From Moraxella nasovis (GTDB lineage Bacteria; Pseudomonadota; Gammaproteobacteria; Pseudomonadales; Moraxellaceae): a stretch of DNA of 32,000 bases. Shown one piece after another: positions 7,989 to 32,000 of this stretch. The DNA lies in NCBI RefSeq assembly GCF_022701215.1, contig NZ_CP089976.1, forward strand, positions 1,290,001 to 1,322,000. Direction: 5' to 3'. The position numbers and the translations under genes were made by a program. Numbering within the stretch: position 1 is the first letter of the stretch; the number at the start of each line of letters is the position of its first letter. The notes beneath the pieces were generated by a model, which was not told where the DNA came from, did no database searches, and saw nothing but the letters and a program-made list of their open reading frames with translations.

Positions 7989-10900
7989 TTGAAAGACTTA
8001 TTAGACATCACAAGAGGCCCTGCCGAAAACGGCATGAAGGAATTTGACAGCATTCAGATTTCATTAGCGTCACCTGATACGGTACGTTCGTGGTCTTATG
8101 GTGAGGTTAAAAAGCCTGAGACGATTAATTATCGCACATTCAAGCCTGAACGTGATGGCTTATTTTGTGCCAAAATCTTTGGCCCTGTTAAAGATTTTGA
8201 GTGCTTATGCGGCAAATACAAACGCCGTAAATTTCAAGGTATTATTTGCGAAAAATGTGGCGTGGAAGTTACCGCTGCTAAAGTGCGTCGTGAACGCATG
8301 GGGCATATTGAGCTGGCAAGTCCTGTAGCTCATATTTGGTTCTTAAAATCACTGCCAAGCCGTATCGGTCTTTTGCTTGACATCACGCTGCGTGATATTG
8401 AGCGCGTGCTTTATTTTGAAAGCTACATCGTAACAGATGCAGGCTTAACAGGTCTTGAAAAATATCAATTACTAGATGATGAAGAATATTTTAACGCATT
8501 AGAACAGTATGGTGATGAATTTACCGCCAAAATGGGTGCTGAAGCGGTTCAAGATTTATTAAAAGACATCGATGTTGATAATGAGATTGATATGTTGCGT
8601 GAAGCAATTCCGCAAACGGGCTCTGAAACCAAGCTCAAGAAAATGGCAAAACGCTTGCAATTATTAGAAGCGTTCCGTGATTCTGGTAACAAGCCTGAAT
8701 GGATGGTGATGACGGTTCTGCCTGTATTGCCACCTGATTTGCGTCCGCTTGTGCCACTTGAAGGCGGTCGTTTTGCCACGTCTGATTTGAACGATTTATA
8801 TCGCCGTGTCATCAACCGTAACAACCGCCTAAAACGTCTTTTGGAATTAAACGCTCCTGACATCATTGTGCGTAACGAAAAACGTATGCTCCAAGAAGCG
8901 GTGGACGCATTGCTTGATAACGGTCGCCGTGGACGTGCGATTACTGGCTCTAATAAACGCCCCCTAAAATCCTTGGCAGACATGATTAAGGGTAAACAGG
9001 GTCGTTTCCGCCAAAACCTACTGGGTAAGCGTGTGGACTACTCGGGTCGTTCGGTGATTGTTGTAGGTCCTACACTGCGTCTACACCAATGCGGTCTGCC
9101 AAAGAAAATGGCATTAGAGTTATTTAAGCCATTTACTTACGCTAAATTGCTACAAAACAACATTGCAAGCACGATTAAAGCGGCTAAGAAGATGGTAGAG
9201 CGTGAAGAGCCTGCGGTTTGGGATATGCTTGCTAGCGTAATTCGTGAACACCCAGTGCTACTAAACCGTGCTCCAACACTTCACCGTCTAGGTCTGCAAG
9301 CTTTTGAGCCAGTATTGATTGAAGGTAAGGCAATTCAGCTACACCCATTGGTGTGTGCGGCGTTTAACGCAGACTTTGATGGCGACCAAATGGCGGTACA
9401 CGTACCATTGACCCTAGAGGCTCAGCTTGAAGCTCGTGCTTTGATGATGTCAACTAATAACATTCTGTCGCCTGCGAACGGTGAGCCGATTATCGTACCA
9501 TCACAAGACGTGGTATTGGGGCTGTACTACATCAGCCGTAGTCATGTCGGAGCCCGTGGCGAAAACATGGTCTTTAGTACGGTTAATGAAGCCTTGCGTG
9601 CGATTGGCTCTGATGATTTATCTGTCAATGCCAAAATTAAAGTGCGTGTGACCGAGACCATTTTGGACGAAAAAACAGGCGAAAAAACCACACATACTGA
9701 AATCAAAGACACTGTCGCAGGCCGTCTGCTCATCTGGGACATTATGCCAGAGGGTATGGCGTTTAGTGAGTGTAATACTGAGATGACTAAGAAAAACATC
9801 TCAAAACTGCTCAACTCTTGCTATCGTAAGCTTGGTGTGAAAGATTCGGTGATGTTTGCTGACCATTTGATGTATTTAGGTTTCGCCCAAGCGACCCTAT
9901 CTGGCATCTCAATCGGTATGGAAGACATGGTGATTCCACCAAATAAAAAGCAAATCGTGGATGCAGCCGATGCCGAAGTGCGTGAGATTGAACAGCAATT
10001 TGAACAAGGCTTTGTTACCGCGGGTGAGCGTTATAATAAAGTAGTTGATATTTGGTCTCGTACGTCTGATAAGATTGCCAATGCGATGATGGAGAACCTA
10101 TCAACTGATGACGTCATTAACGCTGATGGCGAAAAAGAGATTGAAAAATCGTTTAATTCAATCTATATGATGGCAGACTCTGGAGCTCGTGGTAGTGCTA
10201 CTCAGATTCGTCAGCTTGCTGGTATGCGTGGCTTGATGGCAAAACCAGACGGCTCTATCATTGAAACACCGATTAAGGCAAATTTCCGTGAAGGTCTAAG
10301 CGTACTGCAGTACTTTATCTCAACGCACGGTGCCCGTAAGGGTCTTGCTGATACCGCCCTAAAAACGGCGAACTCAGGTTACCTAACTCGTCGCCTTGTT
10401 GATGTCGCACAGGACTTGGTAATTACCATTGATGACTGTGGCACAGAGTCAGGACAGCTGATCACACCTGTGATTGATGGTGGTGAAATCGTAGAGCGTT
10501 TAGGCGATCGTGTACTTGGTCGTGTGGCAGCTAAAGACGTCATTAATGCTGATGGTCAGATTGTTGTTGCTAAAGGCGATCTGATTGATGAACGCTTGGT
10601 TGAAGCTTTAGATAAAAATGCCATTGATGAAGTGTATGTGCGTTCTGTGATCACTTGCGAAGCATCTCATGGTGTGTGTGCTAAGTGCTATGGTCGTGAT
10701 TTGGCTCGTGGTCATTTGGTGAATATTGGCGAATCAGTTGGTGTCATGGCAGCTCAGTCTATCGGTGAACCGGGTACACAGCTGACCATGCGTACTTTCC
10801 ACGTTGGTGGTGCAGCAAGTGCTACTTCGGTGGATAATAGTGTTTCTGTGGGTAATGCCGGTACAGTTCGTTTCCATAACATGAAGACAGTAGAGCATGT

Positions 10901-17265: not shown

Positions 17266-18006
17266 TTAATTTATTGTGTGCGCTAATTTCTTCCGCATAG
17301 ATTCGCCTGCCAGTGCAAGCGGGTATGCTCGGTGAATGATGCGATCAAGCACAGCGTCAGCAATGGTTGCTTCAGGAAATAGTCCATGCCAAGCTGCGAC
17401 AGGGTATTGGCTAGTAATCAGCAAACCGCCAACGCTGGATTGCTTATCAATAATATCAAGCAACACAGGACATATCTGCGGTAGTAATTCACCAATGCCA
17501 AAGTCATCAATGATTAACAAATCCACCTTGCAGTATTTTTGCTTAACCTTGGCGATACTGCCATCGGCTATTGATAAGATAATATCTTCGTATAAATCAG
17601 CAGCTTGAACAAACATCACTTTTCTTAAGTTGCGACAAGCGTAATTGCCGAGCGCACAAGCCAGCCAAGTCTTACCAGTTCCTGTCGCACCCGTAATAAT
17701 GACACTTCGATGCCTATCTATCCATTCGCATTCTAAAACTGGCGAGAGACTGTCTGGACTGAGACGCCTACTATTATAATCTATATCTTCAACTCTAGCT
17801 TTGCTATAGCGAAACTTGGCGTTTTTAATCAATTTATTGATGTGATTATTGTGCCGACCATTGATTTCATGTTCAAGCATACCTTCAATCAGCTTTGTTG
17901 TGCTTATCTGTGGATTGCTTGGTGCCAGATAATGCACCTCATAATAGTTGGCAGCATGGCTAAGTTTTAGTTGTTTGAGTTTTAGGATAATGGTATTAAT
18001 TGTCAT
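17266..18006 (-). CDS. istB: IS21-family helper ATPase IstB
   Basis: I call the start at the ATG at 18006 ('MTINTIILKLKQLKL'), preceded by AGGAG (18014-18018), 10 bp after the istA stop. Walker A 'GATGTGKTW', Walker B 'LLIIDDFG'. The longer ORF-track version (to 18102) overlaps istA and I reject it. Confidence 0.9.
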   Translation of the reverse strand: MTINTIILKLKQLKLSHAANYYEVHYLAPSNPQISTTKLIEGMLEHEINGRHNNHINKLIKNAKFRYSKARVEDIDYNSRRLSPDSLSPVLECEWIDRHRSVIITGATGTGKTWLACALGNYACRNLRKVMFVQAADLYEDIILSIADGSIAKVKQKYCKVDLLIIDDFGIGELLPQICPVLLDIIDKQSSVGGLLITSQYPVAAWHGLFPEATIADAVLDRIIHRAYPLALAGESMRKKLAHTIN

Positions 18007-18016
18007 GTTTAATCTC

Positions 18017-19609
18017 CTAGCTTGCAATTTGGTTGATTTCATTGGCGTAATAATTTGAGCCACGAATGTTTTCGTGCGGTTGGTTTGAGGTGAATACAAC
18101 ATCCAAATCTTCCATGCTTGGCATGATTAGATGCTCTGTCTTTTGGTAAATTTTATTTTTAAATACCGAAATGATGCGGTCAACTGCACAGATATTGAGT
18201 CTTTGCGCATAGTCAAAACCTTGCTCTATCTGCATATTCGGCACTTTATGCTCAAGCAAATATCGCTTTAACTGATTGAGCTTTTTAAGATTATTGGCAT
18301 AGCCGGATTTGTTTTGCATAATCTTTTGAACCATATGAGCGGTTTGTTTGCCAATATTTTGTGCCCAAGCCAGTAATTTATCTGGCTGCATTTCATCTTG
18401 CAGCTGATGATTTCTTGGCATATGCTCATGTAAAATGCTATTACCTGTGGTAATGTGTTGATGTTCAGCGATGAGTTCGCGGTGTAGATACACCAATACT
18501 TTGTTATCTGTGAGTTTGACATCTACACGCTGACCTATAAACTGATATGGGACAGAATAGCTGGCATGTTCTAAAGTAATCATATAAAACTCGGTAACTT
18601 TAAGATTATAGAACCATTGGCATATTTCATACGCCTTGGCAGGCAACGGATTTAAAAACTGCTCATCAGTCTTGCTAAAACAAACATATCGACTCTCTGG
18701 GTAGCGTTTTGTTGTTTTGGTATTTAATTTGCAAAGCTCTTGTGAGAGTGTATGGTTTAGTTCATCCAAACTAAAAAACCGATGATTTCTTAATTTAGCC
18801 AAAATACCCATCTGAACAATTCGCACCGCCAGTTCTGCCATTGATTTGTCTTTTGGCTTGCGAGGTCGTGAGGGTGTAATAATAATGTCATAGTGATCTG
18901 CAAGTTCGCTATATGAGGGATTGATTTGAATATCTGTTGAATTGTGGCTAATCACTGCAGATTTTAAGTTGTCTGTGACCAGCTTGAGTGGCACACCACC
19001 AAAATACTCAAACATACGGATATGGCATAGCTGCCAGTCTTGTGCCTTTTGAGATGAGACGGCGGTACAATAGATATACCCAGATGCAGGCAGTATGGCA
19101 ACAAAAATCTCAGCTTCAACAATTACTGTGCCTGTGCGCTCATTATAAATAGGCACTTTGCGACCACAGAAGTCCACTTGCACCATTTCGCCAGCCTTAT
19201 AGATCTGTCGCTTACTCGGGCGGGAGGTTTTCTTGTATTTACGATATTGTTCACAAAACTGTGAATAGCCAATGCCGTCAGGATGTGTCTCCCTGAACTC
19301 TTGCCAAAGCAATTCAAGTGTCATGTCAGGGCGCGACATCTCTTTATCAATGTATGCCCAATCAGGATGTGTTTTGATGGATTTGATTTTGTGTGGGTTA
19401 TATACCTTGACCAAGCCCAAAAGCCTTCGCATTTCAACATCGTTTGTTGCTAGTATTTCATCAATACCAAGCATGCAGTTTTGATTGAGCTTGCGTATTT
19501 TGGCGACTGTGGTGGGTGAGATGCTTAGATGGCGAGCGATGGCTCGGTTGCTTACGCCCTGATCGATTTGCTTTAGTGCAGCACGGATGGTTTTATTATC
19601 TATGTTCAT
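18017..19609 (-). CDS. istA: IS21-family transposase IstA
   Basis: 530 aa. N-terminal HTH ('GVSNRAIARHLSISPTTVAKI') followed by a DDE integrase-like core ('QVDF...', 'LVTDNLKSAV'). Classical partner of IstB. Confidence 0.9.
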   Translation of the reverse strand: MNIDNKTIRAALKQIDQGVSNRAIARHLSISPTTVAKIRKLNQNCMLGIDEILATNDVEMRRLLGLVKVYNPHKIKSIKTHPDWAYIDKEMSRPDMTLELLWQEFRETHPDGIGYSQFCEQYRKYKKTSRPSKRQIYKAGEMVQVDFCGRKVPIYNERTGTVIVEAEIFVAILPASGYIYCTAVSSQKAQDWQLCHIRMFEYFGGVPLKLVTDNLKSAVISHNSTDIQINPSYSELADHYDIIITPSRPRKPKDKSMAELAVRIVQMGILAKLRNHRFFSLDELNHTLSQELCKLNTKTTKRYPESRYVCFSKTDEQFLNPLPAKAYEICQWFYNLKVTEFYMITLEHASYSVPYQFIGQRVDVKLTDNKVLVYLHRELIAEHQHITTGNSILHEHMPRNHQLQDEMQPDKLLAWAQNIGKQTAHMVQKIMQNKSGYANNLKKLNQLKRYLLEHKVPNMQIEQGFDYAQRLNICAVDRIISVFKNKIYQKTEHLIMPSMEDLDVVFTSNQPHENIRGSNYYANEINQIAS

Positions 19610-20337: not shown

Positions 20338-21297
20338 ATGGCTGGAGATATCCAAGTTAATTTGCGCATCCCGCCTGACCTTAAACAAAAGCTGCTGGAG
20401 CAAGCACAGTTTCATGGTCGTTCTTTAAATCTTGAAATGAACTATCGCTTGGTCAACTCATTCTCCACACCCAATGACAGCTATGCAGACATCATGCAAA
20501 AGCTAGATGAGATTGTTGCTCGCCATCATAAAACCAGGCGATTGAGTGCGGTTCAAGAACGATTAAACACAGCCTTATTTGAATTGAGCAAGGTGCCAAT
20601 GGTACGACAGCTATCGCCTGCGCGTATCGCTTATGATTTGGGTTATGAAAGAGCTGATGAAGTGATTCGTTGGTTTGATGGTGATCTTGAGCCAACTTTT
20701 ATACAGCTTAAACAACTGGCGGACTATCTAGGATGTGATGCCGAATGGCTAATGTTTGATGAAAAACAGCCTTATCCAATCAAAAACCAAGACATGAGCC
20801 GTTTTGATACCGTCCAGTCTATTGTGGAGTTTTGTTTTGAGCCGGAAGCGGGGTTTGATGCAGTTCAAAAGGTATTTTTTATTCGAAATGACAGTACTGC
20901 TGGTGATGTATTGATCATCAAGCAGTTTAGTCACAAGCATGCCCAGGTGTACACTACCAATATTCATCTTAGCAATGTGGTTGGTGCTACAGGTGCTAGA
21001 ATACAAGCTTTGTTTGTGTTGGCACTCAAAGATATTTGTAAACACGGTGAGTATAAACACCAAACCATGAGCTACTTATTTGACGCAGCTGTCTGTGAAC
21101 AGCTAAAACAAGGTATAGAGCATCCACTTAAGCTGACTGCACGAGCAGCCTTTACTCCCTGGATGGATGACATCTGGGATCGGTACATGTATGAAAAACA
21201 AGATGCAAATTACTACTGGCACGGCTATCGGGATGTCTGCTTTAGAGTGCAGGCATATATCAATGAAGATCCCAAGCTAAGAGACATGTATCCCTAA
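20338..21297 (+). CDS. Arc-type RHH + XRE-type HTH + unknown C-terminal domain protein
   Basis: 319 aa. Residues ~5-42, 'IQVNLRIPPDLKQKLLEQAQFHGRSLNLEMNYRLVNSF', match the Arc-like RHH pattern. Residues ~90-142, 'LSPARIAYDLGYERADEVIRWFDGDLEPTFIQLKQLADYLGCDAEWLMFDE', match the Cro/C1 HTH pattern. I do not recognise the remaining ~175 aa. GGAG RBS. Confidence 0.6.
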   Translation: MAGDIQVNLRIPPDLKQKLLEQAQFHGRSLNLEMNYRLVNSFSTPNDSYADIMQKLDEIVARHHKTRRLSAVQERLNTALFELSKVPMVRQLSPARIAYDLGYERADEVIRWFDGDLEPTFIQLKQLADYLGCDAEWLMFDEKQPYPIKNQDMSRFDTVQSIVEFCFEPEAGFDAVQKVFFIRNDSTAGDVLIIKQFSHKHAQVYTTNIHLSNVVGATGARIQALFVLALKDICKHGEYKHQTMSYLFDAAVCEQLKQGIEHPLKLTARAAFTPWMDDIWDRYMYEKQDANYYWHGYRDVCFRVQAYINEDPKLRDMYP

Positions 21298-21860: not shown

Positions 21861-22553
21861 TCAATGACTTGCACCACTATCACTAGCCTGGTCGATTGGA
21901 CTAAATATATTTTTCACGCCATAGTTCTCCATATGCAATATTATATCAATAATCAAATCTCTATCAATGTTGATCTTGTTAAAATTTAACCATTGTAATT
22001 CTATTTTGGAAAAATCTATATGCTTATAATAACCCCCTGAAATAATATCAAAAAACCCATCTAAATCAGAACCCAGATAACCACCAACCCCCAAAAAGGC
22101 CTCACTTAATGAACATAAAAAATCCCATTGATTATTTATATATTGACAATCTACAACAATACTCTTTTGGAGTGGAATATCTTTATTCAAGGAATAAAGA
22201 TAGGAAAATCTGAGCCATTTTTGCTTATATGCATTAGACATGTATACCCAATGGAGTTTGTTAATATTACTATTAATAATGTTTTTTATCCAGAGTATCT
22301 CAAGCCAAGTGAACTCATCTTGGAAACTATAATCGGTAATATAAAAGCAATTATTATTAAAATAATAATCATAAATAAATAGTGAGAAATAACTAACACT
22401 ACCAACGATTTCAAGTTTATAAAAATCACTGTTTAAGTAATCAATATTAACTGTAGTTTTTTCAATTTCTATTAATAGTGTGTTGCCATTAATTTGTATG
22501 TTTCTGATAGGAGTTTTAAATTCAGATTTATTACTAAGTAATTTTAAGTACAT
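21861..22553 (-). CDS. cdiI: Orphan CdiI-3 immunity protein with C-terminal barstar-like domain
   Basis: 230 aa, starting 2 nt after the CT3 stop. 'GYLGSDLDGFFDIISG' aligns with the barstar signature 'YYGENLDALWDCLTG' (Y29, D35 and D39 equivalents conserved). I do not recognise the first ~135 aa. Very AT-rich. Confidence 0.7.
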   Translation of the reverse strand: MYLKLLSNKSEFKTPIRNIQINGNTLLIEIEKTTVNIDYLNSDFYKLEIVGSVSYFSLFIYDYYFNNNCFYITDYSFQDEFTWLEILWIKNIINSNINKLHWVYMSNAYKQKWLRFSYLYSLNKDIPLQKSIVVDCQYINNQWDFLCSLSEAFLGVGGYLGSDLDGFFDIISGGYYKHIDFSKIELQWLNFNKINIDRDLIIDIILHMENYGVKNIFSPIDQASDSGASH

Positions 22554-22555
22554 AT

Positions 22556-23637
22556 CTATCTCACTGGTTTGGTCAACACTCCACCATCAGGATACCAAGG
22601 AGCAGGGAAAGGTCGTATATTATTGTAGTTATGATCAATAACATATCCCATCCTTCCATTGGGCATTTTTAATATTCTATGATGCCTACCCTCAGAGTTT
22701 GGAACCAACCATTCAGTTGCACCTTTCCAATTTGGATTCTCCCTTCCTTGATAAATTTTTTGTATGCCATTTCTATCAAGATTAGGAGTTCCTTTACCAG
22801 ATATCACATCCTCATATGCAGACCTTAAACCTTTTATATGAATCGGGTTTGGTGATGATAATTTTGGAGAGCTTGCATTATTTGATTTCGCAGTTGTAGC
22901 GTGCCCAGTGGTTTTAACACTTGCGTGATTACCACCCCTAACCGACTGTCTCGAAACCGCATTATAAGCTTCTACAGCAGAACCTGCAATTTGATGACCT
23001 GCAACAGTTACAGCAGCCATTGCTCCATGAGTATAAGTAATAAGCGAGCTTTCCAATTGATATAAATACTCAGGAGTACCCGCATATTCAATCATATACC
23101 GATATTTTTGAGATCTCAAATGATTACGACAGGCATTATCTTTACACTGGCGATTATAATGCTCAATAATTTTTGTAACGCCTTTTTCCCACTCGGCTAT
23201 TTCTTGAGAAGTCATGCCAGCATGTTCATAGCTGATATATTTCCATTGATGTATGATTGAATTACAAGCCGCAGAAGGTTCAGGGGAGCAAAATTTAGTG
23301 TATTGTAGGTGAAAGCTTTCTATGTCAACAGGTTTTAATAAAGCATTATTCTCCACCGCCTCCCCGGCACTGCCTACTGCCGTATCCACATCAAACCCAT
23401 ACAGCAGAGCTACAGAGCCTGCGGTGAGGCGGGCGGTGTTTAGGATTTTGTTGTATTCATCAGATCCTGGGCTGATTTCTCCTGAGTTGATTTTATCTTG
23501 GATGTCATCATCAATCATCCAATCACCCACCATCTCACCGATGATAGCACCGACAGCCGCCGCCTCGCAAGACTGGTCTTTGGCTTTGGCGGAGAGGCAG
23601 CCTGTTAAGCCTGCGGCAAGTTTGTGAGAGAGGTTGT
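22556..23637 (-). CDS. cdiA: Orphan cdiA-CT fragment 3: pre-toxin/VENN stub + barnase-like RNase toxin
   Basis: The frame is open from just after a TAG at ~23638-23640 and there is no credible start. 'HKLAAGLTGCLSAKAKDQSCEAAAVGAIIGEMVGDWM' is shared with the main cdiA. VENN is at 23345-23356. The C-terminus 'ATEWLVPNSEGRHHRILKMPNGRMGYVIDHNY' aligns with barnase E73, R83, R87 and D101-H102. Confidence 0.8.
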
Positions 23638-23737: not shown

Positions 23738-24058
23738 TTAGTAAAAAATCTCTCTAATTCTGTCTACTTCAACATCTTGACGATAGATGTCTAAAATGAT
23801 ATTTTTTTGATCTTCTGTATAAAATTTTTCATTGGTATTTGCTTGATTTTTTAATGCAAACAATATATTTAAAATTTCATAATCAAAAGAATGCATATTT
23901 ATTATGTAAGGCACATACAATTTTAAAATATCGAATGACTGTTGAGGATTTAATATTTTTATGTTTTTATCTATAAAGTCACACAAATACCACTCATCAA
24001 CAATATTGTTATTTTTAACATCTTTTAGCAAATTATCAAGATTTTTGAAAAAACTCAT
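23738..24058 (-). CDS. cdiI: Orphan CdiI-2 immunity protein (family not recognised)
   Basis: 106-aa soluble protein with no TM segments. It starts 4 nt after the CT2 stop and is very AT-rich. The call rests on position. Confidence 0.6.
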   Translation of the reverse strand: MSFFKNLDNLLKDVKNNNIVDEWYLCDFIDKNIKILNPQQSFDILKLYVPYIINMHSFDYEILNILFALKNQANTNEKFYTEDQKNIILDIYRQDVEVDRIREIFY

Positions 24059-24062
24059 ATTC

Positions 24063-26915
24063 TTAATCCTTAAACTTAAAATCTATTTTTAGACCAGTAT
24101 TAACATTTTCGACGTAATGTATTTCTACACCATTAACATTCTGGGCTTTTTTGACCCATCCATCTTTGGCATATAAACCATTTTTTGCGTCTGACATTTT
24201 GATAGGTAACTTTCTACCCTTTGGATTGCCCCTCACCTCCTCCATTGCTAATTGCTCAGTCAAATTTCTAGGCGTAGTTCTTCCTGTTGATATTAAAGAG
24301 TAGTCAATCATTTTGACTTGAGATGTTGGTTTTCCTACCTCTATATCTCCAACTTTGCTAGATGTTTTTGGCAAAATTCTATTAACTTTAGTGATTTTTC
24401 CAACGGGTATAATTTCAACAACATGGGTTGGAACGACCATCATATTGATGGCATATACAACAGCTGCGACTGATTTGCGCACCTTTTGCATTTCAGTATC
24501 AGTGGCTTGATTTGCCCAGGTTGCTAAAGAATTATCAAGATTATCCAAATATCTTTGAGTAAGTTCTATATTGCCTTTACTGTACGCATCTTGCATTAAC
24601 TCCAGCAGGTTTCGTTCTTGCGGTCTAATATCTACACTACTCTTTGCTTTTTCAAACTCTCTGACTAGCTCTCCAATCTCTCCTGGTGCTAGACCCACAA
24701 TGCTATTATTCTCCACCGCCACCCCAGCTTCATTCGCTGCGGTATCCACATCAAAATCATAGAGTAGGGCGAAGCTGCCTGCGGCAAGTTTGGCGGTGTT
24801 TAGGATTTTATTATAATCTGGTGTGCCTGGGCTGATGTCTCCTGAGTTGATTTTAGCTTGGATGTCATCATCAATCATCCAATCACCCACCATTTCACCG
24901 ATGATAGCACCGATGGCGGCAGATTCGCAAGATTCGTCTTTTGCTTTGGCGGAGAGGCAGCCTGTTAAGCCTGCGGCAAGTTTATGAGCGACATTAGTGA
25001 TAAACTCTGTATCATTGAAGTCCAGTGGTTTAACACCATGAGTATAAATACCAGCTGCTGCGGCATCCACCAGTTGATTGGTCAGATGTCTTTTTAGGGA
25101 CTCTTCTAGGCTTTCGCCATAGATTAAGCTATCCGTCAGAGCATGACCTGCACCTTGTACAAAGGCACGAGTGAATTTATCACCGATGGTGGCAGTGGTC
25201 GAGGTATCTACTTGCAGAGTCTGAGCTAAGAATTTGTCCAGACTGGCAGTTGCCCCAGCTGTCAGCACGGCTCTTGCCATGTTTTTGGCAGTTTGTGATT
25301 TACCTAGGTCTTTGAGTGTTTTATTGACATCGCCTTTGTTATTGACTAGGGTGGTACCTGCTTGGGTGACTAAGGAGGTGAAGGCAGCATTTGCCATTGC
25401 TGCTGTCGCAGAACCTGCTGTGACAGATACGCCCATCGAGCTTAGCACAGACACACCGCCACCAGCCGTTGCCATCGATAAAGCAATCGCCAGTAGCGCT
25501 GCTCCTGCTGGGGAGAGTCCTTCTTGTTTGTAATCCCATTCTTCCTGGGCAAGTCTGATGGCGGTGAAATCCACATCATCACGCTGGATGATGTCACTTA
25601 GGTAGTCAAAGCCTGGGTTGTGGCTTAGTCGTGTCAGGACATTGACCAGATGATCTTTATCGGCTAGGTCATCTTTGTTGATGGGTACTTGTACAGCCAG
25701 ACCGCCTGTGGCATTGAGAGTGGGGGTAACGCCAATGAATGAGGGTAGCTTGGCATCTTCATTGATATAACCCGACTCTGAAATGGACTGCCAGACTAGG
25801 TTTTCAAATTGGCGAGATTGACTGACGCTGACGGTTGTGCTGATGGTGTCTAGGATGATCCTAGCATCAGCCACTGCTTTATCACCCACACCCGCCGTGA
25901 CGCTCGCCCCTTGTAGATTGGCAAAGCGAGTGCCTTGTAGCTGGGTATTGCCTCCTGACTCACTTTGACTATAGTTAGCAATCAGGCTGGTTGGCAGCTC
26001 GCTGATGATTTGCTTGCTGTCTTTGGTATTGACTTTTCTATATTTGATGCCAGCAAAGCTAGAAGTCGTTTTAGACTCCACTTCTTTGACATCCACTTCC
26101 TGTACAGCATAAAGACCCAAAGCTTCGCCAGCCTTAAGCTGAATTTGACCTGCTGGTGCATTAAATTCAGTAGCATAGGCATATAGATTATCATTCGCCT
26201 GCACTGAGATGGCATTGGCGTTTAGCTTGACTGCCTCGCTATCGGCGATTTGCTCTGTGGTAGTTGTGACAGTAATTTTCTTTTTGGCACCACCCCAGCT
26301 TTTTTTCTTGAAAGTGTTGGTTTCTCTATCATAGATACTGTCTTGACCAGCTTGTAGAATGGTACTGCCAGCACTTTGGATGGTAATGCCAGCATCGCCT
26401 GCTTGATAAGTGCCGCCTATCAGTAAGATGTTACTGTCTGATGCTGGCTGTGCCGAAACAGTGCCTGCTTGGGGATTGCTAATGGCTTGGATGACAATAC
26501 CATCTTTGGCCGTGATGGTGCTTGGCTGATAATTTTTATGCAATGCATAAGCATCATCTTCAAATTCACCACGCTCATAGACATCGTGCAAACCCTCAAT
26601 GCTAATAGCAATATCGATGTTTTGGACAGGTGGTATTTGTGACAATAACCGCTTAAACCCCGTCAATTTATCAGTGTCACCACCTAAGGCGGCTGCATAG
26701 GTGCTTTTGAGCTTGGCTTTATGCTCGTCAAGTTTGGTATCGCTATCAAAAGCAGCCTCATCAAAGACAAGCTTGTCAATGATGGCGTTGGCTGTTTGTG
26801 TATCTGTATTGTCAGTTTTCTTGCCAAGTAGCGGAAAAGGCATTGAAGCCACCGCCAGCCGTAATGTTAGCCGCTTTAAATCAAAAAGCAACAAAAAGCA
26901 GTGGAAAATCCACAA
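24063..26915 (-). CDS. cdiA: 5'-truncated orphan cdiA copy (duplicated cdiA body + PT-VENN + CT2 toxin)
   Basis: 950-aa ORF. Residues from 'PLLGKKTDNTD' to 'LSAKAKD' are identical to the main CdiA. VENN is at 24705-24716. CT2 (213 aa) differs from CT1 and CT3. The first 26 codons (26837-26915, TTG 'start', no RBS) are unrelated sequence. There is no signal or TPS domain, so it cannot be an independent secreted CdiA. Confidence 0.85.
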   Translation of the reverse strand: MWIFHCFLLLFDLKRLTLRLAVASMPFPLLGKKTDNTDTQTANAIIDKLVFDEAAFDSDTKLDEHKAKLKSTYAAALGGDTDKLTGFKRLLSQIPPVQNIDIAISIEGLHDVYERGEFEDDAYALHKNYQPSTITAKDGIVIQAISNPQAGTVSAQPASDSNILLIGGTYQAGDAGITIQSAGSTILQAGQDSIYDRETNTFKKKSWGGAKKKITVTTTTEQIADSEAVKLNANAISVQANDNLYAYATEFNAPAGQIQLKAGEALGLYAVQEVDVKEVESKTTSSFAGIKYRKVNTKDSKQIISELPTSLIANYSQSESGGNTQLQGTRFANLQGASVTAGVGDKAVADARIILDTISTTVSVSQSRQFENLVWQSISESGYINEDAKLPSFIGVTPTLNATGGLAVQVPINKDDLADKDHLVNVLTRLSHNPGFDYLSDIIQRDDVDFTAIRLAQEEWDYKQEGLSPAGAALLAIALSMATAGGGVSVLSSMGVSVTAGSATAAMANAAFTSLVTQAGTTLVNNKGDVNKTLKDLGKSQTAKNMARAVLTAGATASLDKFLAQTLQVDTSTTATIGDKFTRAFVQGAGHALTDSLIYGESLEESLKRHLTNQLVDAAAAGIYTHGVKPLDFNDTEFITNVAHKLAAGLTGCLSAKAKDESCESAAIGAIIGEMVGDWMIDDDIQAKINSGDISPGTPDYNKILNTAKLAAGSFALLYDFDVDTAANEAGVAVENNSIVGLAPGEIGELVREFEKAKSSVDIRPQERNLLELMQDAYSKGNIELTQRYLDNLDNSLATWANQATDTEMQKVRKSVAAVVYAINMMVVPTHVVEIIPVGKITKVNRILPKTSSKVGDIEVGKPTSQVKMIDYSLISTGRTTPRNLTEQLAMEEVRGNPKGRKLPIKMSDAKNGLYAKDGWVKKAQNVNGVEIHYVENVNTGLKIDFKFKD
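24943..26836. repeat. 1.9-kb direct repeat, copy A
   Basis: Matches 29049-30942 at a constant offset of 4106 bp. Every line I compared is identical except 25032 (A) versus 29138 (G). Confidence 0.9.
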
Positions 26916-27099
26916 GGGTAGCCGTGATGGTAAGCCCTACAAGCCAAAGCCACCAACACCCAAGTCTAAAGCACAGCTTGAGAACATGAACAAAGAAACC
27001 ATGAAAGCGTATGAGCAATACGCCAAAAAACTGCCAGCTGGTACGGTCAAAAATGCCGTTAAAGAACTGGTTAATCACAACCAAGATAAGGGGCGATGA
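26836..27099 (+). pseudogene. 3' remnant of an unidentified + strand gene (Lys/Pro-rich C-terminus)
   Basis: Protein-like translation on the + strand, 'GIEATASRNVSRFKSKSNKKQWKIHKGSRDGKPYKPKPPTPKSKAQLENMNKETMKAYEQYAKKLPAGTVKNAVKELVNHNQDKGR*'. It begins exactly at the repeat breakpoint. The upstream part of ORF 26701..27099 is merely antisense to cdiA. Confidence 0.3.
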
Positions 27100-27171
27100 T
27101 GAGGTAGTCATCCTGTGAGGGCGGTAGCAAGATTGCAATAGAGATCGTTAGGCTTTCTTGAAATACCTGAA

Positions 27172-27228
27172 AATTCAATAGTTATCTCAAAATGCTGGGT
27201 TACGCTATCGCTAACCCAGCCTATGGGC
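27172..27228. repeat. Cassette-junction element, copy 1 (downstream of cdiI-1)
   Basis: AATTCAATAG-N7-AAAATGCTGGGTTACGCTATCGCTAACCCAGCCTATGGGC, with the same 9-bp inverted repeat as copy 3. It ends 2 nt from the cdiI-1 stop codon. Confidence 0.8.
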
Positions 27229-27230
27229 TA

Positions 27231-27971
27231 TTATGCAAACAATATAAACAATACAAATATAACACACCCACAAATAAACAATAATAATTTTATATATTTT
27301 CTGAGCACAGGATGTACAAAATTATTATTTTTACCTTTTATATTATTTTTATAAAACAAAAACATCAACATTGCCAATATGTATGATGCAAAGTTTAATA
27401 AGTATTGATACCTACTTTGATGAGTGGCTTTAAGTTCTATATTTAGATAATCAAGTGTATATTCCAAGATGAACAAGAGGGTTATTGCGACAAAACAGTA
27501 AAAAATTCTTTTACAATCATTTAAATATTTTCCCAAGTAGCCTACAAAAAATGGGAAAAGTACAATCGGTATTAAAGAATGAAACAAATTGCCTACAATA
27601 AAACCTCTAGAAAATTCATAGAATTGCTTGCCATGTGATAGGTCATAAAAAATAAATTTTCTAGAGAAAAAAAGTATCGTCAAAAATAATATAAAAACTA
27701 GATTGAGTTTTATTTGAATAATAAAATCAATTGTAATTGCAGAACATACAAATACCAAAAAGAAACCAAGAAATATCAAAGCATATCGATGCTCTTCAAA
27801 ATAGCTTGGAAAAATAACAATATTGATAACAAAGATTAGCCATGAAAATAAAAATACAATGGCTGTGCTGACAAAATATCCGCCAAAATCTTTTGAACAA
27901 TGTAGCAGTTTATTGCCCAAATGAGACAATTTGGTATCTAAAACTTCTCCATCTCTCGTACTCATCGGCAT
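27231..27971 (-). CDS. cdiI: CdiI-1: polytopic (~7 TM) membrane immunity protein
   Basis: 246 aa. The ATG at 27971 overlaps the cdiA stop by 10 nt (ATGCCGATGA; a second ATG forms an ATGA overlap). I read about seven hydrophobic helices by eye. Extremely AT-rich. The call rests on position and coupling. Confidence 0.65.
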   Translation of the reverse strand: MPMSTRDGEVLDTKLSHLGNKLLHCSKDFGGYFVSTAIVFLFSWLIFVINIVIFPSYFEEHRYALIFLGFFLVFVCSAITIDFIIQIKLNLVFILFLTILFFSRKFIFYDLSHGKQFYEFSRGFIVGNLFHSLIPIVLFPFFVGYLGKYLNDCKRIFYCFVAITLLFILEYTLDYLNIELKATHQSRYQYLLNFASYILAMLMFLFYKNNIKGKNNNFVHPVLRKYIKLLLFICGCVIFVLFILFA

Positions 27972-30900
27972 ACCCCATTGATATAACTATAGCCCATCAT
28001 TGAACAACCATAGCGTATCCTGTCTTGTAGATTTAGCATATCCACTTTGCCAGATCCAGTTCCTATCAGACTGGGTGGCAATGTAAATATTACTGAGCCA
28101 CCAATATGTTTCTCGTGTATAGGTTGTAGTATTGTTTGTTCTTGAACTAAGCGGTTAATATCCCATTGTCTATAATTGGTTACTTTGCCATCCCATAGCT
28201 TTTTAAAATCATTATATCCATCAGCCATCAATGCTTGCCCAGCCTCTCGTCGCCAGTCAGTCCCGCTGGTACGCCAAGAAAAAGAGGAGCCTGTTAAAAA
28301 TGTGATATTTGAATGCAAGGGAATTGTTCCAAAAATATAACACCCTGAAGCACCTAAGCCAGTTAAACATCTTCTTGATACATCGCTAGCACCAGCAAAC
28401 CATCTAGTTTGCGGAAAATGTTTTGACATAACATCAAAAAAATCAGCTCTGCTTTCTATAGTGTTGATATTATTGAACACATTTTGATTGCTAAATATTT
28501 GTTGTAAAACCACATTTCTGCTTCTTATCATGTCGTTACTTAGATTGTTTTTTATTATTTCATTGTTATAAGTCTCACTTATCAATGACTTTAAAGGAGA
28601 AGAATCCCCATTATAATTTAATGACAATCTAATTAAATTAGCACATGCACTACCATTGGCATTTAATGAGCACTCTTTGATCATAAGATCATCATATTTT
28701 TGGGAATGCTTAATATATTGATTAACAATAGATTGTTCACAACTACTATTGCTCTTGCATTTCTTAAACTTATCAACAAAATCCGACAATAAACTTTCAG
28801 ACAGAGCATTCCACCTCGCCGCCACCCCAGCTTCATTTGCTGCGGTATCCACATCAAAGTCATACAGTAGGGCGAAGCCACCTGCGGCAAGTTTTGCGGT
28901 GTTTAGGATTTTTTGTTTATCTTCATCACTTAGGATAAGGGCTTTTTCACCATCAGGTAGGGTAACTTCATGTTTATTAGTCATCCAATCACCCACCATC
29001 TCGCCTATGATAGCACCGACAGCCGCCGCCTCGCAAGACTGGTCTTTGGCTTTGGCGGAGAGGCAGCCTGTTAAGCCTGCGGCAAGTTTATGAGCGACAT
29101 TAGTGATAAACTCTGTATCATTGAAGTCCAGTGGTTTGACACCATGAGTATAAATACCAGCTGCTGCGGCATCCACCAGTTGATTGGTCAGATGTCTTTT
29201 TAGGGACTCTTCTAGGCTTTCGCCATAGATTAAGCTATCCGTCAGAGCATGACCTGCACCTTGTACAAAGGCACGAGTGAATTTATCACCGATGGTGGCA
29301 GTGGTCGAGGTATCTACTTGCAGAGTCTGAGCTAAGAATTTGTCCAGACTGGCAGTTGCCCCAGCTGTCAGCACGGCTCTTGCCATGTTTTTGGCAGTTT
29401 GTGATTTACCTAGGTCTTTGAGTGTTTTATTGACATCGCCTTTGTTATTGACTAGGGTGGTACCTGCTTGGGTGACTAAGGAGGTGAAGGCAGCATTTGC
29501 CATTGCTGCTGTCGCAGAACCTGCTGTGACAGATACGCCCATCGAGCTTAGCACAGACACACCGCCACCAGCCGTTGCCATCGATAAAGCAATCGCCAGT
29601 AGCGCTGCTCCTGCTGGGGAGAGTCCTTCTTGTTTGTAATCCCATTCTTCCTGGGCAAGTCTGATGGCGGTGAAATCCACATCATCACGCTGGATGATGT
29701 CACTTAGGTAGTCAAAGCCTGGGTTGTGGCTTAGTCGTGTCAGGACATTGACCAGATGATCTTTATCGGCTAGGTCATCTTTGTTGATGGGTACTTGTAC
29801 AGCCAGACCGCCTGTGGCATTGAGAGTGGGGGTAACGCCAATGAATGAGGGTAGCTTGGCATCTTCATTGATATAACCCGACTCTGAAATGGACTGCCAG
29901 ACTAGGTTTTCAAATTGGCGAGATTGACTGACGCTGACGGTTGTGCTGATGGTGTCTAGGATGATCCTAGCATCAGCCACTGCTTTATCACCCACACCCG
30001 CCGTGACGCTCGCCCCTTGTAGATTGGCAAAGCGAGTGCCTTGTAGCTGGGTATTGCCTCCTGACTCACTTTGACTATAGTTAGCAATCAGGCTGGTTGG
30101 CAGCTCGCTGATGATTTGCTTGCTGTCTTTGGTATTGACTTTTCTATATTTGATGCCAGCAAAGCTAGAAGTCGTTTTAGACTCCACTTCTTTGACATCC
30201 ACTTCCTGTACAGCATAAAGACCCAAAGCTTCGCCAGCCTTAAGCTGAATTTGACCTGCTGGTGCATTAAATTCAGTAGCATAGGCATATAGATTATCAT
30301 TCGCCTGCACTGAGATGGCATTGGCGTTTAGCTTGACTGCCTCGCTATCGGCGATTTGCTCTGTGGTAGTTGTGACAGTAATTTTCTTTTTGGCACCACC
30401 CCAGCTTTTTTTCTTGAAAGTGTTGGTTTCTCTATCATAGATACTGTCTTGACCAGCTTGTAGAATGGTACTGCCAGCACTTTGGATGGTAATGCCAGCA
30501 TCGCCTGCTTGATAAGTGCCGCCTATCAGTAAGATGTTACTGTCTGATGCTGGCTGTGCCGAAACAGTGCCTGCTTGGGGATTGCTAATGGCTTGGATGA
30601 CAATACCATCTTTGGCCGTGATGGTGCTTGGCTGATAATTTTTATGCAATGCATAAGCATCATCTTCAAATTCACCACGCTCATAGACATCGTGCAAACC
30701 CTCAATGCTAATAGCAATATCGATGTTTTGGACAGGTGGTATTTGTGACAATAACCGCTTAAACCCCGTCAATTTATCAGTGTCACCACCTAAGGCGGCT
30801 GCATAGGTGCTTTTGAGCTTGGCTTTATGCTCGTCAAGTTTGGTATCGCTATCAAAAGCAGCCTCATCAAAGACAAGCTTGTCAATGATGGCGTTGGCTG

Positions 30901-32000
30901 TTTGTGTATCTGTATTGTCAGTTTTCTTGCCAAGTAGCGGAAGAAATAGGGCGGTGCGACTTGCCTCATCGATCACTTGCCGTGTTTGCCCTTGGGAGCC
31001 AAGGGCTGCCATCTGTACTTTGCCATTATCCGCTTGTAAATTTGCCATTTGCACAGCAATACCACCAGCACTGATTAGGCGAATGTCGCCATCGCTAGTG
31101 GTAAGGCTTGCCCCTGCATTTTCTACACCTGTAAATTCGGTATTGGCAATCTTAAGAGATTTATTAAGCTTGGTAATTTCTTGAGCCAGTTCATCAGGCT
31201 TGAATTTGATATTCAGCTCTTGACGGCGAACCAGTTCGTCTTGTATGCTCTTAGCAAGCTGCTGATTCAGCGCTTCTTTTTGCTCTTCATAGTCAGCGAC
31301 AGGGCTTTGTGCATTTTTATCTTCCAAATCACCCAGTTTGTCAGTTGCCTCTTTGTGACTTGCCAATGCCTGTTGATAGACCATATCACGATTTAGTGTG
31401 TCAATTTGATTTTGAAGTGTTTCGATCTCACCCTCAAGTAATTTAATACGGTCATCATCTTTAATGCCTGATACCGAATTGCTAATAGCACCAATATATA
31501 GATTGCCTTGGGTCGCAGTGGCTTTAATACCACTACCAGCTTGAATTTGACTGCCGCCAATATCAACACCAGCACCCTTAAGATGCACCACACCCTCAGT
31601 GGTGATGGTTACTTTGCTTTCAGTCCCGCGTCCTTTATCACCTGATTGTGATGCTAAAGTTAAACCACCCTGACTTGCAAGCTCTACACCGCCAATGGCA
31701 GTAATGGTTTTGCCTGCCTCGACTGTGATGTCATCATGGCTTTTAATGGCAAGCACACCATTGGCTGCTGCTAATTGTGGATTATGAGCAAGAACATCAC
31801 TTTTATGAGTGGTTAAAGTAGCATTTTGCCAATCTACACCGCCTGCCTGACTGTGTAGAGCAATGCTGCCAGCTTGTAGCGTGCTTGTGCCAAGACGAAC
31901 ATCCTGATTGGCATAGACAGAAGCTAAGCCTTGTGCCTTGATGTCAGCATCTTCGAGTATGACCTGATTTTCACGACTGCTGATGGCAAGGTGTGTATTT
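27962..32000 (-). CDS. cdiA: CdiA contact-dependent inhibition exoprotein (3' part; 5' end off window) carrying CT1
   Basis: I translated the frame by hand and it stays open from 31757 to 32000, so the GTG at 31756 is internal. It has FHA-type Gly-rich beta-helix repeats, then the body shared with orphan 2, then the pre-toxin region 'GAIIGEMVGDWM...DFDVDTAANEAGVA'. A degenerate ARWN sits at 28808-28819 where VENN is expected. A 281-aa CT follows. Confidence 0.9.
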   Translation of the reverse strand, partial: NTHLAISSRENQVILEDADIKAQGLASVYANQDVRLGTSTLQAGSIALHSQAGGVDWQNATLTTHKSDVLAHNPQLAAANGVLAIKSHDDITVEAGKTITAIGGVELASQGGLTLASQSGDKGRGTESKVTITTEGVVHLKGAGVDIGGSQIQAGSGIKATATQGNLYIGAISNSVSGIKDDDRIKLLEGEIETLQNQIDTLNRDMVYQQALASHKEATDKLGDLEDKNAQSPVADYEEQKEALNQQLAKSIQDELVRRQELNIKFKPDELAQEITKLNKSLKIANTEFTGVENAGASLTTSDGDIRLISAGGIAVQMANLQADNGKVQMAALGSQGQTRQVIDEASRTALFLPLLGKKTDNTDTQTANAIIDKLVFDEAAFDSDTKLDEHKAKLKSTYAAALGGDTDKLTGFKRLLSQIPPVQNIDIAISIEGLHDVYERGEFEDDAYALHKNYQPSTITAKDGIVIQAISNPQAGTVSAQPASDSNILLIGGTYQAGDAGITIQSAGSTILQAGQDSIYDRETNTFKKKSWGGAKKKITVTTTTEQIADSEAVKLNANAISVQANDNLYAYATEFNAPAGQIQLKAGEALGLYAVQEVDVKEVESKTTSSFAGIKYRKVNTKDSKQIISELPTSLIANYSQSESGGNTQLQGTRFANLQGASVTAGVGDKAVADARIILDTISTTVSVSQSRQFENLVWQSISESGYINEDAKLPSFIGVTPTLNATGGLAVQVPINKDDLADKDHLVNVLTRLSHNPGFDYLSDIIQRDDVDFTAIRLAQEEWDYKQEGLSPAGAALLAIALSMATAGGGVSVLSSMGVSVTAGSATAAMANAAFTSLVTQAGTTLVNNKGDVNKTLKDLGKSQTAKNMARAVLTAGATASLDKFLAQTLQVDTSTTATIGDKFTRAFVQGAGHALTDSLIYGESLEESLKRHLTNQLVDAAAAGIYTHGVKPLDFNDTEFITNVAHKLAAGLTGCLSAKAKDQSCEAAAVGAIIGEMVGDWMTNKHEVTLPDGEKALILSDEDKQKILNTAKLAAGGFALLYDFDVDTAANEAGVAARWNALSESLLSDFVDKFKKCKSNSSCEQSIVNQYIKHSQKYDDLMIKECSLNANGSACANLIRLSLNYNGDSSPLKSLISETYNNEIIKNNLSNDMIRSRNVVLQQIFSNQNVFNNINTIESRADFFDVMSKHFPQTRWFAGASDVSRRCLTGLGASGCYIFGTIPLHSNITFLTGSSFSWRTSGTDWRREAGQALMADGYNDFKKLWDGKVTNYRQWDINRLVQEQTILQPIHEKHIGGSVIFTLPPSLIGTGSGKVDMLNLQDRIRYGCSMMGYSYINGVCR
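29049..30942. repeat. 1.9-kb direct repeat, copy B (inside the expressed cdiA)
   Basis: Partner of 24943-26836. The upstream edge is sharp (30942/30943). Four antisense ORF pairs in the supplied track are identical at offset 4106. Confidence 0.9.

Follow-up and report, generated by a model that had tools for sequence, protein, structure and literature searches.

An undescribed CdiA C-terminal toxin family paired with polytopic membrane immunity proteins in Moraxella nasovis and other Proteobacteria, with a probable target in the envelope

The stretch of Moraxella nasovis DNA analysed here (32,000 nucleotides, positions 1,290,001 to 1,322,000 of contig NZ_CP089976.1; hereafter the window) carries the 3'-end of a cdiA gene of a contact-dependent growth inhibition (CDI) system. 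Its C-terminal toxin region (CT), designated CT1, is followed by an overlapping gene, cdiI-1. CT1 is a polymorphic CdiA C-terminus made of two modules, an N-terminal module (aa 1-95) and a toxin core (aa 96-285), and it is co-inherited with the membrane protein encoded by the overlapping gene. Sequence comparison leaves little doubt that CT1 and CdiI-1 form a true toxin-immunity pair belonging to a new family, and CT1 probably acts at the membrane or within the periplasm. The system is of a known kind, a CDI toxin-immunity pair, with a toxin domain that is undescribed and a target that is probably in the envelope. The reading preferred here, to which a probability of about 0.45 is given as a whole, is that CT1 would work from the periplasmic side on a lipid head group and that CdiI-1 would intercept it at the membrane.

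The cdiA reading frame extends over 1345 stop-free codons up to the window edge at 32000, has its stop at 27962-27964 and ends ...EAGVAARWNALSES...YINGVCR. Upstream of CT1 it matches Pfam DUF637 (2e-23) and PT-VENN (4e-4), and on these matches it was identified as the 3'-end of a cdiA/tpsA gene, CT1 being the C-terminal end of a TpsA/CdiA effector whose body contains DUF637. From ARWN to the stop CT1 has 285 aa (28819..27965, minus strand), and 281 aa without ARWN. An orphan copy within the window reads ...EAGVAVENN where the main cdiA has ARWN, and the junctions of homologues include AVRWN (in Moraxella relatives), AVENN, AVSNN, AILNN and VEDN, such that the final Asn is the sole constant junction position across the CT1 family. 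In Escherichia coli the terminal Asn of VENN is needed for CdiA-CT processing (PMC9424206). Protein identity between cdiA and the first orphan resumes just upstream of the junction and stops exactly at ARWN/VENN; the full-length gene therefore carries CT1 as its CT, and from this place we infer that it is the expressed one.

A word-indexed protein search returned two Moraxella orphan CTs with 73-74% identity to CT1 and, even when the family alignment was used, close Moraxella relatives only. A profile built from CT1 and the two Moraxella orphan CTs was then run with HMMER, as a full scan, against 1.84 billion cluster representatives and gave 60 clusters at E<=1e-3 and 44 at E<=1e-10. The core domain lies almost always at the extreme C-terminus of the host protein. 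The long members scanned are TpsA/CdiA proteins with Fil_haemagg_2, DUF637, TPS or PT-VENN upstream, others are named filamentous haemagglutinin, and the public names of members either cover the haemagglutinin body only or read hypothetical protein. A pattern scan covering a single genome from each species gave 25 loci, in Pseudomonas, Moraxella, Faucicola, Idiomarina, Marinomonas, Litchfieldella, Thiopseudomonas, Cupriavidus, Advenella, Oligella, Pelistega, Pantoea and Thorsellia; members are also found in Acinetobacter colistiniresistens, Sideroxydans and Dyella, and no plasmid-borne relatives were found by tblastn. The core sequences make up a conserved family, seen so far in type Vb effectors only.

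The partner of CT1 had been described in the initial annotation as a translationally coupled protein of 246 aa with about seven hydrophobic helices, and its length and helix number were confirmed. The length of 246 aa is that obtained from the upstream ATG at 27971 (ORF, open reading frame, 27231..27971), and starting at the second ATG two codons later gives 244 aa. The stop codon TGA of cdiA overlaps this second ATG as ATGA, which fits translational coupling, and a 4-nt overlap of this kind also occurs in the related loci L002, L028, L029 and L030. Seven hydrophobic Kyte-Doolittle segments are present in CdiI-1; its AlphaFold2 (AF2) model likewise contains seven helices but is of low confidence (predicted local distance difference test, pLDDT, 46; two-sequence alignment). 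CdiI-1 is 100% identical to the M. nasovis hypothetical protein LU293_06475 and falls in no Pfam or NCBIfam family. The GC content of the cdiI-1 region (window 27001-28000) is 31%, compared with 44-50% in the cdiA body and 38-47% in the flanking housekeeping genes; this agrees with a cassette exchanged horizontally, or may be no more than a compositional effect of so hydrophobic a protein.

The immunity gene lies directly downstream of the toxin and is inherited with it. In a Moraxella metagenome-assembled genome (L002), which also carries a ShlB/POTRA gene, a toxin 74% identical to CT1 is followed, with a 4-nt overlap, by a CdiI-1 homologue of 245 aa (40% identity), while two metagenomic contigs (L030/L031) carry a toxin with 91% and a CdiI with 81% identity. 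A remnant of the immunity gene is found in Moraxella sp. ZY200743 (CP091313, L001). Here, at 8870-10087, the cdiI-1 homologue breaks off after some 125 codons and, at the border of the CDI island, is joined in frame to a gene for a DUF3100 membrane protein, and the upstream orphan toxin is without an intact immunity gene. Alignment of L030 (3-1627) with window 27231-28819 disclosed an uneven divergence: the core (aa 121-285) is about 98% identical, the N-terminal module about 80% and the immunity protein 81%, a pattern hinting that immunity specificity may perhaps not reside in the core alone.

Across the family, the gene that follows the toxin encodes a polytopic membrane protein at 26 of the 27 informative related loci, and at none of the 27 was a soluble immunity protein seen. 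This gene overlaps the toxin gene, usually by 4 or 13 nt, everywhere except in L003, where the toxin reading frame is interrupted. At 21 of 22 usable genome loci, L003 being the exception, the partner has 111-171 aa and 2-4 predicted transmembrane (TM) helices, mostly 135-171 aa and 3-4 TM, and its gene overlaps the toxin stop by 4 or 13 nt; the other types have 244-245 aa and 7 TM, 241 aa and about 6 TM (A. colistiniresistens) and 217 aa and about 5 TM. In Thorsellia anophelis (L024, 4812-5855) the protein at the immunity position reaches 347 aa, about twice the usual size, with at least 6 hydrophobic segments, and may have arisen when immunity units were fused or duplicated. The immunity types, at least five in number, have no sequence similarity to one another or to any Pfam family, and common ancestry of the 3-4-TM and 7-TM proteins was not detectable by sequence comparison. 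A single toxin fold has thus repeatedly taken up polytopic partners unrelated to each other, which suggests direct binding of the toxin rather than a shared repair enzyme. Of the 7-TM partner put forward in the initial annotation, the pairing with a membrane-embedded protein extends to the whole family, whereas the 7-TM type itself is specific to a lineage, most relatives having unrelated partners of 3-4 TM and 135-171 aa. This family-wide pairing is the strongest argument for action in the envelope and supports the earlier proposal of an envelope-targeting toxin, although the target itself we infer from sequence.

All four cysteine motifs quoted earlier for the 281-aa CT are present, namely CKSNSSC (21/27), CSLNANGSAC (50/59), CLTGLGASGC (151/160) and CSMMGYSYINGVC (272/284). 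When 8 cysteines were placed randomly in 285 residues, four pairs no more than 12 apart arose in 0.4% of 1e6 trials. In a comparison of 85 family sequences the pairs are kept or lost together, as expected from the suggestion that they form disulfides: pair 2 is Cys-Cys in 58/58 sequences, pair 4 in 69 of the 71 aligned at both positions (two exceptions), and pair 3 has both cysteines in 14 and neither in 48 wherever both positions align. The pairs behave as disulfide units. The hydropathy of CT1 also agrees with the earlier statement that it contains no long hydrophobic hairpin, its peak 19-residue Kyte-Doolittle mean of 1.06 being below the transmembrane threshold of 1.6. Among 31 members of the core family the median of this peak is 0.77 and its largest value 1.31, and the grand average of hydropathy ranges from -0.07 to -0.73. 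A conserved GxxxGxxxG glycine zipper is absent from CT1 and such a motif occurs in 3 of the 31 members, at non-equivalent positions. Basic charge was considered as a membrane-binding signature and rejected, as the family is not consistently basic (core median pI 6.9).

Many database matches begin at profile position ~97-125 and so comprise the core only. Overall identity among core family members is 25-45%. In the 85 sequences W140, W189, F205, E227, Q228 and G271 are invariant, and R124, A125, F127-F128, S148, R149, G154, R190, G194, G201, W219, L224, L231, Q232, H235 (76/83), R267, C272 and C284 are nearly so. The AF2 model of CT1, calculated from a 34-sequence alignment, is confident and all-helical (pLDDT 83.6, predicted template modelling score 0.84), with 163 residues at pLDDT >=90 and low confidence at 151-185 and 241-260. 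The first of these segments is a Gly/Ala-rich, mildly hydrophobic loop with the family motif GLGADG...TF..G..L; it is the most hydrophobic stretch in most family members and a candidate membrane-contact element.

Scans of CT1 and CdiI-1 against Pfam, NCBIfam and PADLOC gave nothing but a weak DUF6862 match, and a Pfam scan of 34 aligned members gave DUF6862 only, with no ColM and no Ntox/Tox polymorphic-toxin model. The 34-sequence profile had no match among PDB chain sequences at E<=10, TelC's included, and CT1 as a single-sequence query had no relevant match there, only two chance ones (E 0.069 and 0.64). Foldseek with the CT1 model found nothing significant in PDB (best E 0.39, TM-score 0.25) or in BFVD. 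Comparison by hidden Markov models (HMMs), structure prediction and Foldseek, of the kind that the initial annotation had proposed, gave no match of the core to a cytoplasmic nuclease family; nor was similarity found in Pfam, NCBIfam, the PDB profile search or Foldseek to deaminase, ADP-ribosyltransferase (ART), NADase or Fic/HEPN families.

The single DUF6862 signal belongs to the N-terminal module. CT1 matches Pfam DUF6862 (PF21726) at aa 14-64 with 16.7 bits (E 0.0074), under the gathering threshold of 24.1 bits; as 19 of the 34 aligned family members match this model, with a best E of 3.2e-10, the module is weakly indicated to be a divergent relative of DUF6862. It is helical in the AF2 model (pLDDT 88-97). 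Among the fetched loci, an HMM of the module alone matches other CdiA-CTs with unrelated C-terminal domains, namely the main CdiA of Advenella (L023) and proteins of Moraxella (L017/L025) and Cupriavidus (L004); in L023 the module-bearing toxin is followed by a soluble, acidic, immunity-like protein of 131 aa. Since it is present on CdiA-CTs with different toxin domains, the segment aa 1-95 is a portable N-terminal unit. With its helical hairpins and conserved Cys50-Cys59 staple it resembles the cytoplasm-entry domains of E. coli CdiA-CTs, which are mostly helical with at least one Cys pair, for example Cys55-Cys65 in CT-EC3006 (PMC9424206). A strong DUF6862-type segment used as query had no sequence similarity to solved structures in PDB. 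CT1 is consequently not the single cysteine-rich domain it had been taken for, as Cys pairs 1 and 2 lie in this separable, DUF6862-like unit that is also fused to other toxins; the designation as an unrecognised family holds for residues ~96-285, which match no library or PDB entry, and has to be withdrawn for aa 1-95.

The arrangement agrees in most respects with known CdiA-CT/CdiI modules: CT1 forms the polymorphic tip of its TpsA/CdiA protein, which contains DUF637 and PT-VENN, the immunity gene comes next, orphan CT/immunity modules lie downstream, and the CT has two domains with a disulfide-stapled helical N-terminus. It differs in having ARWN for VENN and a 7-TM immunity protein instead of a small soluble one. 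The characterised CDI toxins covered in CDI reviews and surveys are nucleases and ionophores, and NADase, deaminase and peptidase types are predicted in a few cases; the CT1 core corresponds to none of these, and it is absent among the 21 E. coli CT types in Table 2 of PMC11630599.

Two further groups of toxins offer parallels to what is proposed here. Bacteriocins of the colicin M (ColM) type are hydrophilic enzymes that cleave lipid II from the periplasm, and in Pseudomonas and Burkholderia their immunity proteins are very divergent integral membrane proteins, such as the 4-TM PmiA and the 3-TM BmiA (PMC5277000, PMC5821083). This precedent means that membrane-embedded immunity does not imply a pore-former. 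The CT1 family shares with ColM the hydrophilic toxin, the small and divergent 3-4-TM immunity proteins and the occurrence of several unrelated immunity types per toxin family; it differs in the all-alpha core of another fold and in being delivered by CDI, ColM being a diffusible bacteriocin. Membership of the ColM family was rejected, there being no Pfam (34 members), PDB-profile (E<=10) or Foldseek match. The Lipocone superfamily includes helical, periplasm-acting toxin tips with predicted or demonstrated action on lipid head groups, and 4-TM proteins provide the immunity to some of them (PMC12419801). Its Min-Wnt, prok-SAA, ClaspCone and TelC families resemble CT1 as soluble helical polymorphic-toxin tips with membrane or periplasmic immunity, some having a 4-TM core, whereas the Lipocone His/Glu/Asp active-site pattern is absent from the CT1 family. 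Alignments built from the source data of PMC12419801 were compared by hhalign for Min-Wnt, prok-SAA and ClaspCone-2. Lipocone membership was rejected because against these three families the full, core and N-module alignments of the CT1 family reached probabilities of no more than 0.1-0.3% (P>=0.19); the positive controls gave 96.2% (Min-Wnt vs SAA) and 95.9% (SAA vs ClaspCone-2). TelC or other Lipocone structures were not among the 50 best PDB matches listed by Foldseek.

The main rival to the preferred reading, to which perhaps a minor share of the probability should go, is that CT1 is an ionophore or pore-former whose soluble core refolds in the membrane and dissipates the proton-motive force, CdiI binding the inserted helices in the bilayer. 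The all-helical CT1 model and the Gly/Ala-rich, mildly hydrophobic loop at aa 151-185 are compatible with such refolding, and the fact that every immunity partner is hydrophobic, integral and short-looped matches the classical picture of immunity to ionophores and colicins (PMC11630599, PMC5821083). An entry-type N-terminal module precedes the known CDI ionophore domains too (PMC11630599), and the EC93-type ionophores (type 10) are like CT1 in their delivery by CdiA, their all-helical two-domain CT and their membrane-embedded, highly diversified immunity. These ionophores, however, are membrane-spanning five-helix bundles with the glycine zipper as sole shared element and with two-helix CdiI proteins of 72-100 aa (PMC11630599). 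The CT1 family has neither a conserved zipper nor a TM-grade segment in any of 31 members, it is fairly highly conserved with many invariant polar residues, unlike the CDI ionophores, and its partners are not such hairpins, CdiI-1 having 244 aa and 7 TM and the relatives 111-347 aa and 2-7 TM (mostly 3-4). An ionophore of EC93 type was accordingly rejected on hydropathy, motif and immunity size. As regards pore-forming colicins, the likeness consists in a helical soluble domain together with 3-4-TM immunity proteins whose size is similar in the main subfamily; the ten-helix bundle with a buried hydrophobic hairpin was rejected, since CT1 has no hairpin and no Pfam or Foldseek match, and no similarity to colicin pore-domain structures in PDB was seen by Foldseek.

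Two further explanations were weighed and are improbable. In one, CT1 would be imported to the cytoplasm through its N-terminal module and act there as an enzyme, the membrane protein capturing the toxin or blocking the import route. Its module, with an NNYLT-type start and two Cys pairs, is indeed common to other CdiA-CTs, of which that of L023 is accompanied by a soluble immunity-like protein, and it resembles described entry domains in its stabilising disulfide (PMC9424206); the conserved Arg, Ser, Glu and His of the core would also suit an activity directed at nucleotides or nucleic acids. The almost invariant core disulfide would however be reduced in the cytoplasm, soluble immunity was found at 0/27 informative loci, and the core lacks similarity to the nuclease, deaminase, ART, NADase and Fic/HEPN families searched. 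Slightly less probable still is a core that is a non-catalytic blocker, acting from the periplasmic side on an essential inner-membrane protein (a transporter, or a machine of cell-wall or lipopolysaccharide synthesis), with CdiI as decoy or shield. The evidence on localisation serves this explanation equally well, no catalytic motif was recognised, and the conserved Trp/Arg/Glu surface could be a binding interface; several unrelated immunity types, on the other hand, fit decoys of one target poorly, and invariant polar pairs of buried type (E-Q) are more typical of active sites.

The preferred reading, action of CT1 from the periplasm on a lipid head group, places the toxin on the periplasmic face because of the almost invariant core disulfide, the exclusively membrane-embedded partners and the delivery of CDI toxins into the periplasm. 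After contact, CdiA would deliver CT1 into the target cell's periplasm, where CT1 would be released at the ARWN junction, which is of VENN type. The N-terminal module, by analogy with CdiA-CT entry domains, may dock the toxin at the cytoplasmic membrane, and the core, held by Cys272-Cys284, would stay on the oxidising periplasmic side and act on a membrane-embedded target, most likely a phosphate-bearing head group (lipid II, undecaprenyl pyrophosphate or a phospholipid). A catalytic or binding site could be formed by Glu227-Gln228 with Arg124, Ser148-Arg149, Arg190, His235 and Arg267. In the producer, CdiI-1 would sit in the inner membrane and catch the toxin at the membrane surface by binding it directly.

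An enzyme or a tight ligand-binding protein for lipid head groups is favoured because of the hydrophilic core, the conservation dominated by Glu-Gln, three or four Arg, Ser, His and Trp, and the ColM and Lipocone precedents; the assignment of the core to a phosphate-bearing head group is the more speculative part. That CT1 is specifically an enzyme on a lipid-linked substrate is a tentative proposal. More doubtful is the most far-reaching form of the proposal, in which the ~190-aa core would be a new enzyme fold, delivered by CDI, that cleaves or modifies a lipid-linked envelope intermediate and for which unrelated polytopic immunity proteins have been repeatedly recruited. If this were true, no CDI toxin before CT1 would have been shown to kill by attacking the envelope enzymatically instead of as a nuclease or ionophore, and CT1 could expose a vulnerable, surface-accessible step of Gram-negative envelope biogenesis; an enzymatic core would represent a new antibacterial activity as well as a new fold. 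The CT1 core family stands as a third, widespread CDI CT family beside the nucleases and ionophores of the CDI literature, and its repeated recruitment of unrelated membrane immunity proteins is a useful case for the evolution of immunity to membrane-proximal toxins.

Table 1 Features of the CDI locus and its surroundings, in window positions.
Feature	Position	Strand	Remarks
cdiA (tpsA-type effector), 3' portion	27962..>32000	minus	ORF continues past window edge; Pfam DUF637, PT-VENN
ARWN junction	28808..28819	minus	replaces usual VENN; final Asn kept
CT1 N-terminal module, aa 1-95	28535..28819	minus	helical hairpins, DUF6862-like, modular
Cys21-Cys27 staple, N-terminal module	28739-28759	minus	
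Cys50-Cys59 staple, N-terminal module	28643-28672	minus	
CT1 toxin core, aa 96-285 and stop	27962..28534	minus	hydrophilic all-alpha, undescribed family
Cys151-Cys160	28340-28369	minus	lineage-variable
E227-Q228	28136-28141	minus	invariant
Cys272-Cys284	27968-28006	minus	almost invariant
ATGA overlap, cdiA stop and cdiI-1 second ATG	27962..27965	minus	
cdiI-1, predicted polytopic inner-membrane immunity protein	27231..27965	minus	244 aa; about 7 TM
First orphan cdiA-CT	ORF 24063-26915	minus	canonical VENN
Likely immunity gene of first orphan	ORF 23738-24058	minus	106 aa
Second orphan CT	ORF 22556-23533	minus	VENN, then two close Cys pairs, CSPEPSAAC and CKDNAC; unannotated C-terminal domain
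ORF after second orphan	21861-22553	minus	230 aa
Arc/HicB-like ORF	20338-21297	plus	319 aa; between IS21 element and orphan modules
IS21-family istA and istB	17266-19609	minus	istA 530 aa (rve, Mu-transposase C), istB 278 aa (IstB_IS21); borders CDI island

Downstream of cdiI-1 the window contains the two orphan modules listed in Table 1. The second orphan CT and the 230-aa ORF that follows it had no Pfam match beyond PT-VENN. The first orphan is unusually long, its VENN-CT being preceded by about 660 codons from the cdiA body, and looks like a recent duplication: a direct repeat of about 2.0 kb with ~100% identity links window 24870-26850 with 28976-30956, at an offset of 4106. Beyond the IS21-family element the window continues with housekeeping genes, namely serA, a gor-like gene, rpoBC and genes for ribosomal proteins.

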